A stretch of DNA of 64,000 nt from assembly GCA_963814585.1 (NCBI GenBank), contig CAWFDF010000008.1, positions 416,001 through 480,000 on the forward strand. Reading direction: 5' to 3'. The notes below the pieces were generated by a model, which ran no database searches, was not told where the DNA came from, and saw only the letters and a list, made by a program, of their open reading frames with translations. This document shows positions 20,030 to 24,029 of this stretch, piece after piece. The number at the start of each line of letters is the position of its first letter. Positions within the stretch are counted from its first letter, which is position 1. Position numbers and translations under genes: made by a program. This DNA comes from an uncultured delta proteobacterium. GTDB taxonomy: Bacteria; Myxococcota; Myxococcia; Myxococcales; Anaeromyxobacteraceae.

Positions 20030-21822
20030 GGCTGGAACCCCTTGAAGGTGCCGCGGTGGAAGTCGGCGTGGCACCACTCGCAGGCGAGCGGCAGGGGCTT
20101 GTAGCGGCGGACGATCACGCCGTTCCCCACCGCCACCGGCAGGTGGCACTTCTCGCAGGCCAGCGGCTTGTGCTTTCCCTCCAGCTTGAAGCGCGAGTCG
20201 CGCTGGTGATCGAACCGGAGGTTCTCCTTCCAGCTGGCGGTGTCATGGCAGCGGGCGCAGTCGGTCCCCTTCCCCGGCAGCGCCAGCTGGCCGGCGTGAA
20301 CGTCGGCGTGGCAGCCGGCGCAGGTCAGGGGGAGCGGCTTGTAGCGCACCACGCCGCCCTCTCCGGGCGGGTGGCAGGAGGCGCAGGCGGCCCTGGCGTG
20401 CTTGCCGGTGAGCGGGAACCTGCTGTCCTTGGCGTGGTCGAAGCGGGCCTTCTTGAACGAGTCGAGGCCGTGGCAGGCGGCGCAGCCGCCGGCGTCGGTG
20501 CGGGCCTTGAACTGGCCGGCGTGGGGATCGCGGTGGCAGGTGCGGCAGTCGTTGGCGCGCGGGATCTTGAGGAGCGCCAGGCTCGGCTTCACCGGCCGGC
20601 CCTGCTGCTCCAGCCGGGCCCGGACCGCCGCCGGCACCCTGGCCTCCAGGCGGACGTCCTTGGGGTGGCAGGAGGCGCAGGCGACGGCGCGGTGGGCGCC
20701 CTCGAGCCGGTAGCCGAGCTTGTCGTGGTCCTCGGCCTCGAAGCGGACCGGGGTGAAGCCCTCCACGGTGTGGCAGCGCTCGCAGGTCTGGGCCGGCGCA
20801 GCGGCCAGCGGGAGCTGACCGAGGTGGGCGTCCATGTGGCAGGTGGTGCACTGGTCGAACTTGAGGCCGCGGTACACCGTCTTCCCCTTGGCCACCGGGA
20901 CGTGGCAGGCCTCGCAGCGAGCCTGCAGGTGCGCGCCGCGCAGCGGGTACTTGGTCTTCTCGTGGAAGGCCTTCTCCTTGGCGAGGCCGCGGACCTTCTT
21001 CCAGTCGTCGGTGGCGTGGCAAGACTGGCAGGCGGCGCCGAAGCGCCCCTGGTGCGGATCCTTGTGGCAGTCGGTGCAGGCCTGGAACGGGATGGGCTTG
21101 TACCGGGCGAACAGCGCCGGCCGGACCGGCGGGGTGCGCGGACCGAGGTCGCCGGCCGGCGGCGCGGGCTGGTCGGCGTGGCACTTCAGGCAGGCCACCT
21201 TGGCGTGCTTGAGCTCCAGCCGGTAGGCCGCCTTGTTGTGGTCGAAGCGGGCCGGCTTCCAGGCCTCGGCGGTGTGGCACTTCTGGCAGTCGGGACCGAG
21301 CTGGCCGCGGTGCTCGTCGAAGTGGCAGGCGGCGCAGGCGGTCGGGGCGCCCAGCTGGCTCTCGCGCCCCTTGGCGATCACCTGGAGGACCTCACCGTCC
21401 GTGACGTGGCGCCGGTCGTGGCACCTGGCGCAGTCCGGCTTGCGGTGCTTGCCCTCCAGCGGGTAGCCGGTGCGGGCGTGGTCGAAGCCCTTCCTGCCGC
21501 CCGGTCCCCAGTCGACCAGCTTCAGGTCTCGTCCGGCGTGCTCGTGGTGGCAGAGCTGGCAGGCCCGCTCCTCCGGCTTGAGCCGGCCGTGGAGCCCCTT
21601 GCCGGCAGCCACCCGCCCCTGCAGCTCCTTGTGGCAGGCCAGGCAGTTCGCCGGGCTGAGCTGCTCGCCGGCGGCGTGGCACTTGGTGCAGTTGGCGAGC
21701 CCCTCCAGCGCGGCATGCGCCTTCGAGAGCTCCCCGGGCGAGAAGACGTCGGCGCCCGCCCCGGAGGCCGAGAGCGCCAGCAGCAGGGCCACGGCGGCCC
21801 GGGCGTGGAGGCCCGTGCTCAC
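20026..21822 (-). CDS. 20-heme c-type cytochrome built from repeated tri-heme modules
   Basis: Signal peptide then VFSPGELSKAH; 20 CxxCH motifs counted; GTG start overlaps the upstream TGA. Confidence 0.92.
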   Translation of the reverse strand: MSTGLHARAAVALLLALSASGAGADVFSPGELSKAHAALEGLANCTKCHAAGEQLSPANCLACHKELQGRVAAGKGLHGRLKPEERACQLCHHEHAGRDLKLVDWGPGGRKGFDHARTGYPLEGKHRKPDCARCHDRRHVTDGEVLQVIAKGRESQLGAPTACAACHFDEHRGQLGPDCQKCHTAEAWKPARFDHNKAAYRLELKHAKVACLKCHADQPAPPAGDLGPRTPPVRPALFARYKPIPFQACTDCHKDPHQGRFGAACQSCHATDDWKKVRGLAKEKAFHEKTKYPLRGAHLQARCEACHVPVAKGKTVYRGLKFDQCTTCHMDAHLGQLPLAAAPAQTCERCHTVEGFTPVRFEAEDHDKLGYRLEGAHRAVACASCHPKDVRLEARVPAAVRARLEQQGRPVKPSLALLKIPRANDCRTCHRDPHAGQFKARTDAGGCAACHGLDSFKKARFDHAKDSRFPLTGKHARAACASCHPPGEGGVVRYKPLPLTCAGCHADVHAGQLALPGKGTDCARCHDTASWKENLRFDHQRDSRFKLEGKHKPLACEKCHLPVAVGNGVIVRRYKPLPLACEWCHADFHRGTFKGFQP

Positions 21823-24029
21823 TTCAGCCCGTACCCGAGGTAGAGGGCGACGCCGATATGGGCGGTGAGGGCCAGCACCAGGAAGACCGCCAGGGTGGCG
21901 TGGAAGAGCCGCCAGTAGCGCAGCAGGTTCTTGAGCGAGCCGTAGAAGCGGAGCTGCCAGCGCAGCCGCGCCAGCTTGATGAGGGCGGCGCGCAGGTCCG
22001 GGTAGTGCTCGGGCTGCTCCAGCCGCAGCCGCAGCGCCACCAGCCGCACCCGCAGCACCAGGGCCTCGAACGGGAAGCGCAGGAGGAGGCCGGGCAGCGA
22101 GCCGGCCCGAACCGGCGCGGTGGCCCGGTCGAGGAGGGCGGCGCCGCCGCTGGCGCGGGTCAGCTCGGGCGCGGCGAAGGCCCGCAGCCGCTCGAAGTTG
22201 GCCGCCAGGTCCTCGAGCTCCTCGGTCGGCTCGCCGTGGACCGGGACCAGGCCGTAGATGTAGCGCCCGACGATGCCGGTGCTGACCACCACCCCCAGCG
22301 CCAGGTAGGTCCCGCTGGCCAGCTGGTTGTTCATCTGGAAGGCGGCGTGGAAGGCGATCACCAGGGGGCTCATGAAGCCGACGAAGACGTGGAAGTCGAG
22401 CCAGCCCTTGATGGCGCCGAGCCCGGTGAGGAGGCGCGTTCGCTTGCGCACCGCGTAGAAGAAGTTGGAGAGCATGAAGGCGGTGGCCACGATGCCGACG
22501 CCATGGCCCCATGCCCCCGCCGAACGGAGCTCCTTGTGCAGCGGCGAGAGCTTCCGCCCCAGCCGGTCCAGGGGATAATACTCCCAACCCTTCCACGCCA
22601 GGAAGACCAGCACCGCCACGCCGGCCCCGGCGTAGAAGGCCCGGAGCATGTGCAGGCGCCGGCGCTCCTTCTGCTCGTGGGCGGCCAGCGGCCGCCGCCT
22701 GGACTTGCCCGCCCCGGCGGTGCCGGTGGTGCCCGGCGCCTCGCCGTGGAAGCGGCGCATGGTGATCCCGACCTTGGAGAGGAACTCCGCCGGAAGCTCG
22801 CCGCCGATGTTGACGATGACGAAGTCGTTGGGGATCGTGACCGGGGTCCCCTTGGCGTCGAGGGTGACCGTGCCCTTCTCGACCGCCTTGACCTGCGACG
22901 GCAGCAGCGCCTTGAGCTTTCCGGCGGCGATGAGCGAGCCGATGCGGGTGCGGTTGGCCTCGCGGCAGCTGGCGAACTCGGCACTCCGGTAGGAGATGGT
23001 CACCTGGGCGCTCGACTCGGTGGCCAGCTGCATGGCCGCCTCGACCGCCGAGTCGCCGCCGCCGACCACCAGCACCCGCTTCCCCTGGTACTGCTCGGGA
23101 TCGGTGAGGCTGTAGACCACCTTCTCCTGGTCCTCGCCCGGCACGCCCATCTTGCGGGGCGTCCCACGCCGTCCGATGGCCAGCACCACCTTGGCGGCGC
23201 TGATGGGGCCCTGGCTGGTGAGGACCTTGAAGTTCCCGTCGGCCCCTTCGAGGCCGGTCATCTTCACGCCCTGCTCCAGCGTCAGCCCGGCCTTGGCGAC
23301 GATCCGCTCCCACCCGGCCAGCAGCTCCTCCTTGCTGATGAGCGACTTGCCGAACTTGCCGACCAGCGGCAGCTCCACCGGCTCGGTCATGGTCACCTTG
23401 CCGCGCGGGTAGTGGAAGACCGTGCCGCCCATCGAGCCCTGCTCCAGCAGCCGGTGCGCCACGCCGTGGGCCTTGAGCGAGAGCGCGGTGGCCAGCCCGG
23501 CGGGGCCGGCGCCGACCACCACCACCGTGCCGCCCTGGGGGGTGGTCTCGGCCAGGCGGTCGGCCGCCTCCATCCCCTGCCGCAGGGCGTTCTTGATGAG
23601 CCCCATGCCGCCCAGCTCGCCGACCACGTGGACGCCGGGGCGGGACGATTCGAAGAACCCGTCGACCTCCGGGAGATCGATGCCGCGCTCGGCCGAGCCG
23701 AAGACCAGCCGGATGGCGTTGACCGGGCACTCCGCGGCGCAGCGGCCGTGGCCGATGCAGTGGTCGGCGTGGATCAGGCGCGCCATGCCGTTGACGATGC
23801 CGAGGATGTCGCCCTCCGGGCACGCCTTCAGGCAGGAGAGGCTGCCGATGCAGATGTCGGGATCGATGACGGGATGGAGCGAGCGGGCCAGGTGCTGCTT
23901 CTTGGCCACCTTCTCGCTCAGGACTGCGGCGTCGCGCTGCTGCCGCAGGCCCTTGCGGAGGTAGCTCACGGCGCCGCCCATCACGGCCAAGGCCAGCGAG
24001 GCCACGACGATCAGCAATCCCTGGTCCAT
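21819..24029 (-). CDS. Membrane-anchored ferredoxin/FAD-NAD(P)H oxidoreductase with a C-terminal di-heme-b-like membrane domain
   Basis: N-terminal TM, two ferredoxin-like motifs, GAGPAG and GGGDSA Rossmann motifs (TrxR-like), C-terminal TM helices with two H-x13-H pairs. Confidence 0.85.
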   Translation of the reverse strand: MDQGLLIVVASLALAVMGGAVSYLRKGLRQQRDAAVLSEKVAKKQHLARSLHPVIDPDICIGSLSCLKACPEGDILGIVNGMARLIHADHCIGHGRCAAECPVNAIRLVFGSAERGIDLPEVDGFFESSRPGVHVVGELGGMGLIKNALRQGMEAADRLAETTPQGGTVVVVGAGPAGLATALSLKAHGVAHRLLEQGSMGGTVFHYPRGKVTMTEPVELPLVGKFGKSLISKEELLAGWERIVAKAGLTLEQGVKMTGLEGADGNFKVLTSQGPISAAKVVLAIGRRGTPRKMGVPGEDQEKVVYSLTDPEQYQGKRVLVVGGGDSAVEAAMQLATESSAQVTISYRSAEFASCREANRTRIGSLIAAGKLKALLPSQVKAVEKGTVTLDAKGTPVTIPNDFVIVNIGGELPAEFLSKVGITMRRFHGEAPGTTGTAGAGKSRRRPLAAHEQKERRRLHMLRAFYAGAGVAVLVFLAWKGWEYYPLDRLGRKLSPLHKELRSAGAWGHGVGIVATAFMLSNFFYAVRKRTRLLTGLGAIKGWLDFHVFVGFMSPLVIAFHAAFQMNNQLASGTYLALGVVVSTGIVGRYIYGLVPVHGEPTEELEDLAANFERLRAFAAPELTRASGGAALLDRATAPVRAGSLPGLLLRFPFEALVLRVRLVALRLRLEQPEHYPDLRAALIKLARLRWQLRFYGSLKNLLRYWRLFHATLAVFLVLALTAHIGVALYLGYGLK

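Follow-up and report, generated by a model that had tools for sequence, protein, structure and literature searches.

The gene described here was found in a window of 64,000 nucleotides (the whole stretch of DNA that was analysed; contig CAWFDF010000008.1, positions 416,001 to 480,000) from the genome of an uncultured member of the Anaeromyxobacteraceae. Its product joins an N-terminal membrane anchor, a ferredoxin domain, a flavoprotein domain of the YpdA/thioredoxin reductase (TrxR) fold and a membrane module carrying two pairs of histidines. On its motifs, the module is an inner-membrane protein (IMP) of the PCC3 type of porin-cytochrome conduit; new here are the flavoprotein/ferredoxin input and its fusion to the IMP. 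On balance, we favour a scheme in which electrons would pass from NAD(P)H through FAD, iron-sulphur (Fe-S) clusters and two b-haems to a cytochrome wire, outward and without conserving energy.

The fused gene

The domain order is read directly from the translated gene, whose features are the following (window coordinates; TM, transmembrane helix):

21819..24029, minus strand: fused gene, 736 residues (anchor, ferredoxin, apparently permuted YpdA/TrxR-fold flavoprotein, five-helix di-haem-type module)
23964..24023, minus strand: N-terminal transmembrane anchor (residues ~3-22) with a basic helix after it, from hydropathy and the structure model
23715..23876, minus strand: two-cluster ferredoxin domain, C60-x2-S63-x2-C66-x3-C70 and C91-x2-H94-x2-C97-x3-C101 (Fer4_10, E 1.4e-11)
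23550..23687, minus strand: segment like the C-terminal FAD-binding motif of the TrxR/YpdA fold, N-terminally placed (profile alignment)
22740..23537, minus strand: YpdA/TrxR-fold FAD/NAD(P)H domain, GGGD[SA]A and [YH]R348 (Pyr_redox_3, E 1.6e-38)
21822..22652, minus strand: PCC3-type inner-membrane module, five helices, with a helical hairpin of ~110 residues between TM4 and TM5
22347..22391, minus strand: putative haem-ligand pair of TM3, H547-x13-H561, W543 ahead
22266..22280, minus strand: [ST]GxxG motif of TM4, T584-G588, reading TGIVG
21858..21902, minus strand: putative haem-ligand pair of TM5, H710-x13-H724, W706 ahead

We take ATG 24029 as the start and not GTG 24113; the 764-residue version that the latter would give was rejected, since its extension has a GC content at third codon positions (GC3) of 0.68 vs. 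0.97 for the gene and since the homologues begin at the ATG position. The source records of the close homologues of the fused protein name Anaeromyxobacteraceae, and one of them (P0065) bears the name of the cultured Anaeromyxobacter dehalogenans. No second copy of the module was found in the rest of the source genome; inspection by eye of 19 stretches ahead of the gene and its homologues showed no motif in common, no motif program having been run. The original prediction on this DNA, made from the sequence alone, concerned the flavin and membrane parts of the protein; the anchor, the ferredoxin domain and the downstream cytochrome/porin operon were absent from it.

The paired histidines of the membrane module

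The original prediction had assigned one H-x13-H pair to each of two transmembrane helices, at 22347-22391 and 21858-21902, and both the strings and the coordinates proved exact: the codons are those of H547 (22389-22391) and H561 (22347-22349) for the first pair and of H710 (21900-21902) and H724 (21858-21860) for the second, with 13 residues between the members of each. The module is 277 residues long and has five membrane helices, on which hydropathy and the structure model agree; its stand-alone homologues measure 280-310 residues.

Conservation of the four histidines, the check that had been proposed, was found throughout: they are invariant in 120 of 120 close homologues (the best 120 of 499 matches) and in all 86 sequences of a more distant set. 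In the alignment of these 86 rows, at 24-83% identity, the only invariant columns are the four His, two Trp and two TM4 Gly, and these residues stay unchanged at identities as low as ~20-25%. Two W-x3-H-x13-H motifs recur in 66/67 matches of IMP length from the GTDB loci; among 20,882 six-frame open reading frames (ORFs) of the source genome they occur together in one, and two hydrophobic H-x13-H in three. Because of this invariance and of this rarity, the pattern is not, on sequence grounds, due to chance.

In the structure model of the module (pLDDT 94.4, pTM 0.85), each pair lies within one helix (module residues 81-102 and 214-271). The module is probably a conserved di-haem four-helix membrane carrier, in which the two pairs would bind the haems. 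As for its predicted topology, the charge bias places the TM2-3 loop, where R528-K529 are conserved, and the segments preceding TM1 and TM5 inside. The first residue of the TM4 motif is Thr here and Ser (SGxxG) in most split homologues.

Relationship with ferric reductases, NOX enzymes and cytochromes b

The four histidines lie on TM3 and TM5, with a spacing within the 12-14 criterion of the ferric reductases. Compared with PF01794, the module gave E-values of 0.0027-0.015 (15.8-18.2 bits against a cut-off of 28), and the same model matched 11 of the 66 members of the module family, with a best E-value of 1.9e-5. The structure modelling and profile comparison that the original prediction had proposed for the C-terminal region gave, for the first, a confident model with each pair in one helix and, for the second, an hhalign probability of 36% against 30 ferric reductase domain (FRD) sequences, with TM2-3 matched to FRD TM4-5. 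Structural matches were found with the superoxide oxidase CybB (5oc0; Z 8.5, rmsd 3.4, 131 of 174 aligned), SpNOX (8qt6; Z 7.1, rmsd 3.0, 119 aligned) and NOX5 (8u7y; Z 6.2), and the natural membrane redox proteins among the low-rmsd matches are all di-haem carriers. A profile search of the PDB sequences with the module retrieved nothing under E 0.08, the H-x13-H helix resembling cytochrome b6 at E 0.1; the likeness to the b561 profile is confined to TM5 (probability 27%), and cytochrome b PF13631 was absent from the VIA lists and had an hhalign probability of at most 2% with a 12-row alignment, to be read as an absence of match only. These data do no more than suggest a kinship of the module with the ferric reductases. 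Two genuine PF01794 proteins are encoded in the source genome, one (C10:60538-60891) with both H-x13-H pairs and the other (C3:365057-365401) with one; one of them also bears W-x3-H-x13-H.

According to the available portions of two papers, NOX enzymes have six helices followed, at the C-terminal end, by FNR-type domains for FAD and NADPH (PMC5676040), and their signature includes His119, four residues after the outer TM3 His (PMC3591440). In the fused protein the corresponding position is a Gln (residue 565, in H561-A-A-F-Q), the helices are five and a C-terminal FNR-type domain is lacking; a NOX identity was rejected on these grounds. The term "NOX-like" used in the original prediction therefore holds for a likely di-haem-type bundle and fails for NOX proper. 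The joining of a probable di-haem membrane carrier to a TrxR-type flavin module instead of an FNR one was supported, and so was its assembly independently of NOX, as the flavin domain is of the TrxR fold and N-terminal to the module rather than C-terminal.

The protein might still be a true NOX-like superoxide generator, or a small-molecule ferric reductase to which the cytochromes would be incidental: SpNOX and NOX5 superpose on the bundle, T584-G585 resembles Thr178 of NOX, and two fused copies lack the operon described below. We regard this as very improbable, given the missing His119 equivalent, the replacement of the TM4 Thr by Ser in most split homologues and the presence of a ~20-haem cytochrome as a near-constant neighbour. 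The acceptor is likely a multihaem chain and not O2.

The flavin and ferredoxin domains

The flavin domain scored 154.9 bits with the YpdA model TIGR04018 (cut-off 339.9) and 56.6 bits with the thioredoxin reductase model TIGR01292 (cut-off 343); its best Foldseek matches were YpdA proteins, followed by TrxR and TrxR-fold ferredoxin:NADP+ reductases. The active-site CxxC is present in none of 79 homologues. This lack led us to reject a disulfide reductase chemistry and, together with the TIGR01292 score under its cut-off, an identity with thioredoxin reductase. R348 is invariant in the flavoprotein homologues; together with GGGD[SA]A, it forms what we take to be an NADPH-type fingerprint, and the nucleotide is probably NADPH rather than NADH. 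The domain appears to be circularly permuted, with its C-terminal FAD motif placed ahead of it: profile positions 78-94 align to YpdA 277-293, the main match ending at YpdA 267, an alignment that is weak alone and has weak supporting matches.

In both motifs of the ferredoxin domain, predicted to bind two clusters, the second ligand position is not a Cys. H94 is kept in 79/79 homologues, and position 63 is occupied by Cys (41), Ser (28), Thr (9) or Ala (1). Among 77 homologous flavoproteins, 67 have a hydrophobic segment ahead of the ferredoxin. Electrons probably pass through this ferredoxin, a step that the original prediction did not mention.

The downstream operon

The fused gene is followed, on the same strand, by four genes:

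20026..21822, minus strand: 20-haem c7-repeat cytochrome (20 CxxCH), signal-peptide-like N-terminus (Pfam Cytochrome_C7)
19121..20029, minus strand: 10-haem cytochrome, signal-peptide-like N-terminus
17670..19124, minus strand: probable lipoprotein multihaem cytochrome, lipobox-like LATG/C, 14 CxxCH, in four frame pieces
16037..17668, minus strand: putative porin-like outer-membrane protein, 543 residues

The gene for the 20-haem cytochrome overlaps the stop codon of the fused gene. The three cytochromes hold 44 c-haem sites in total, and their presumed periplasmic or extracellular placement is read from signal-like N-termini only. The three frame breaks of the lipoprotein gene are probably assembly errors, since two short-read contigs covering them show one and two gaps, equal to the number of breaks in each; the orthologue in locus L002 is a single frame of 478 residues with 13 CxxCH. 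The 543-residue protein matched no Pfam or NCBIfam model, and the nearest named barrel clusters in the Atlas score 0.85-0.86 (under 0.9), which is a lead only.

The operon was observed directly, and the order fused gene, 20-haem gene, 10-haem gene and porin-like gene is kept in 15/18 loci of relatives (picked from the family-genome matches); among the other three, one is cut short and two are without the operon. The latter are second fused-gene copies (L177 13328-15574 and L188 4124-6526), that of L188 being followed by efflux-pump-like genes (judged by eye) and, further on, by a 14-haem ORF.

As to the surroundings, a gene for a 4-CxxCH cytochrome lies upstream of the operon (28192-28782, near 27189-27662, minus strand; frame C8:443192-443782 of the genome), and L002/L175, L176 and L192 have a 4-haem ORF in a comparable position. 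An endonuclease/exonuclease/phosphatase gene comes directly after the porin-like gene (15101-16015, minus strand), likewise in L002, and an RDD domain fused to a SpoIIM-like domain is encoded at 11693-13429 (minus strand). The region is flanked by tRNA-Glu and a second tRNA (24318-24474) and by tRNA-Lys (14024-14095); the anticodon loop of the second tRNA was unreadable by ARAGORN, possibly for a one-base assembly error. The source genome has 46 frames with at least 4 CxxCH, including frames with 58, 42, 42, 30, 29 and 28, and several of them look frame-split.

Likeness to published porin-cytochrome clusters

In the accessible text of their 2017 paper, He, Barco, Emerson and Roden described the IMP of PCC3 and PCC4 clusters as a protein of five helices with SGXXG and twice WX3HX13H, compared it with the ferric reductase domain and with cytochrome b, and modelled it as quinone-active (PMC5566968). 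The motif and the ferric reductase analogy are therefore already in print. Our assignment to PCC3 rests on the motifs and on the Amphritea locus L050, in which the neighbouring cytochromes have 63 and 21 haems, the counts given there for A. atlantica PCC3 (PMC5566968). Later papers, as far as their accessible parts go, treat PCC3 as four genes, untested, and cite it as a candidate iron-oxidation pathway common in iron oxidisers (PMC9900912, 10.1101/2025.02.27.639646, 10.1101/2024.09.20.614158).

Neither a flavoprotein partner nor an IMP-flavoprotein fusion was found in the literature searched, in which some supplements of He et al. were unreadable, and the available parts of 10.64898/2026.01.22.701106, 10.1101/2021.01.07.425746 and PMC2330069 hold nothing on this protein. 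Since Table S6 of He et al. has unnamed "other redox proteins" of 412-805 residues beside related IMPs (PMC5566968), and given those unreadable supplements, the link between flavoprotein and IMP may be partly in print already.

Phylogenetic distribution and linkage

The module is present in 41 of 60 family genomes, mostly in open frames of more than 700 residues. A representative search with it gave 1,916 matches at E <= 0.001, many of them stand-alone proteins of ~290 residues, and PCC3 conduits occur under at least eleven phylum labels. Among 80 loci with the flavoprotein motif (the top 80 of 562 in a ranking by the whole protein, which favours IMP-bearing loci), nine are fused (one frameshifted), 61 encode the IMP separately at a distance of up to 10 kb and 10 are without one (nine of these being short loci); a cytochrome with at least 10 haems is found in 66/80.

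A reciprocal test of the linkage, free of the whole-protein ranking, was made on 151 genomes from the order of an Undibacterium genome. An IMP match was obtained in 17 of them, strong in nine and weak in eight. The nine strong-IMP genomes (eight without the centre genome, which sits in both alignments) are exactly the nine with the flavoprotein, and the two genes are divergent and 364-526 bp apart. In the eight fetched strong-IMP loci, a 24-27-haem cytochrome, or its frame-split equivalent, adjoins them. The eight weak IMPs are PCC4-like, with a 10-haem neighbour (in one case 4, 5 and 10 haems). Since these eight PCC4-type IMPs have no such flavoprotein in the stretches fetched, the module can sit without one. 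In the PCC4-like clusters (L090-L097), IMP and 10-haem cytochrome are followed in 6/8 by a frame of ~1,100-1,300 residues with 10 CxxCH.

The model of He et al. (PMC5566968), as set out in the available text, takes the module as a quinone-reactive cytochrome b that passes electrons from the wire to the quinone pool or back; the flavoprotein would then be an accessory input to the same site. It agrees with the quinone-linked cytochrome b561 being the best natural structural match, with the PCC4-type IMPs just described and with the presence and expression of PCC3 in iron oxidisers, as far as the papers seen report them. It leaves unexplained the fusion and the adjacency in 9/9 genomes, and the retention of all four His amounts to a full trans-membrane path; no quinone site was identified, none having been tested. 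We consider this model rather unlikely here.

A quick tree built from 120 rows groups the 32 fused ones in a single clade (SH-aLRT 99), with split forms around it; part of the fused rows were picked by closeness to the query, short possible fragments were omitted and kin are non-independent, so that a single fusion event is allowed by the tree and not proven. Variants of the architecture include P0176, whose chain also contains c7 cytochrome repeats, P0169, with an FHA domain between the ferredoxin and flavin domains, and P0160, whose linker is ~200 residues longer. The FHA domain, the large helical hairpin without a known role and the even levels of the PCC3 cluster Slit_1446-1449 in ES-1, expressed similarly across all samples in the part of the source seen, would suit a redox sensor or an assembly factor, in which the module and the cytoplasmic hairpin would signal or preset the redox state of the wire while carrying hardly any net flux. 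The fused protein is without a signalling output domain and its predicted cofactor chain is complete and conserved, which makes a sensor or assembly role highly improbable.

Proposed route of the electrons

In the scheme that we favour, the fused protein would feed a PCC3-type porin-cytochrome conduit from the cytoplasm and take the electrons across the membrane. The FAD of the TrxR-fold domain would be reduced by NAD(P)H, probably NADPH; being without CxxC, this domain may act as a one-electron splitter like the ferredoxin:NADP+ reductases. Single electrons would then run through the ferredoxin clusters, held at the membrane face by the N-terminal anchor, to an inner b-haem (H547/H710) and an outer one (H561/H724), and from there through the 20-, 10- and ~14-haem cytochromes, leaving via the porin-like protein. 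Like NOX/FRE, the protein would work with a nucleotide from the cytosol, two haems and an acceptor outside; the dehydrogenase would be another one and the acceptor a cytochrome wire. An energy-conserving respiration is not expected, because the outward movement of electrons would spend membrane potential; the role might be redox overflow, the charging of a capacitor or the reduction of low-potential extracellular acceptors. A precedent exists in MsrQ, for which a cytosolic NADH flavin reductase, and not quinone, is the proposed donor in the portion of the source available (PMC12525009).

Several observations weigh against this scheme. The packing of the domains is of low confidence in the full-length model (pTM 0.48, pLDDT ~40 for the ferredoxin), and their docking is a prediction. 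The structural Z-scores of the module are middling, unrelated coiled coils rank above these matches, and Foldseek with the module found nothing at E <= 0.001. The predicted topology is weakened by the TM1-TM2 loop, which it places outside and which has 5 K/R and 3 D/E. A TrxR-fold flavoprotein was found beside none of the eight PCC4-type IMPs within the fetched stretches, two of 18 fused copies are without the cytochrome/porin operon, and the ranking bias of the 80 loci has been given above. Lastly, in the part of the source seen, the PCC3 IMP gene of Sideroxydans CL21 rose when the cells could oxidise iron, which fits an inward flow.

Such a flow would make the protein an inward conduit, delivering extracellular electrons through haems and clusters directly to NADP+ or ferredoxin. 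TrxR-fold ferredoxin:NADP+ reductases are reversible and are close structural relatives of the flavin domain; PCC3 is moreover common in iron oxidisers, in the published parts cited above. Electrons moving in this direction would have two potentials against them, that of NADP+/NADPH and that of the membrane, so that a donor below roughly -0.45 V would be needed, for which Fe(II) is far too positive, and we consider it highly unlikely.

To our knowledge, the characterised porin-cytochrome conduits draw from the quinone pool. Extending the outward, NAD(P)H-driven scheme from the fused protein to the whole group, we tentatively suggest, as a possibility that we hold with less than even confidence, that PCC3 conduits are quinone-free, NADPH-driven systems of electron export aided by membrane potential, and not quinone-linked iron-oxidation wires. 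On this view, a NOX-like di-haem module would have acquired a TrxR-fold dehydrogenase and Fe-S clusters with His/Ser ligands and been connected to a cytochrome chain across the envelope, and the Anaeromyxobacteraceae fusion would unite all of the input in a single protein. Should PCC3 indeed be fed by cytosolic NAD(P)H, its direction and its purpose would change and it would be a poor marker for iron oxidation; a direct bacterial route from NADPH to outside acceptors would also be usable in bioelectrochemistry. The fused form turns the question of the conduit into an experiment on one protein, with a homologue named from the cultured A. dehalogenans.

Comparison with known systems

The closest system is the published PCC3. 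With its IMP the module shares a size of ~300 residues, five helices, WX3HX13H on TM3 and TM5 and [ST]GXXG on TM4; with its cluster, a ~20-haem cytochrome, a further multihaem cytochrome and a porin (a porin-like gene here). Published PCC3 clusters consist of four genes, with a quinone link and proteobacterial examples, whereas here we find a fused flavoprotein/ferredoxin, three cytochromes and Thr for Ser in TM4.

The ferric reductase superfamily (NOX, SpNOX, long bacterial FRE, MsrQ and STEAP) has in common with the fused protein bis-His pairs on TM3/TM5 and the presence, in one polypeptide, of a cytosolic NAD(P)H domain; the fused protein differs in the long hairpin before TM5 and in an N-terminal TrxR fold with Fe-S in place of a C-terminal FNR fold. 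The cytosolic Arg pair of MsrQ, in the part of PMC12525009 seen, recalls R528-K529 of the TM2-3 loop, as a lead only. Cytochrome b561 and CybB have the four-helix di-haem bundle that is predicted for the module; the ligands of b561 are spread over three helices. Lastly, YpdA/Bdr and the TrxR-fold ferredoxin:NADP+ reductases, like the flavin domain without CxxC, are its best sequence and structure matches, from which it differs in being apparently permuted, membrane-anchored, provided with its own ferredoxin and under the YpdA cut-off.

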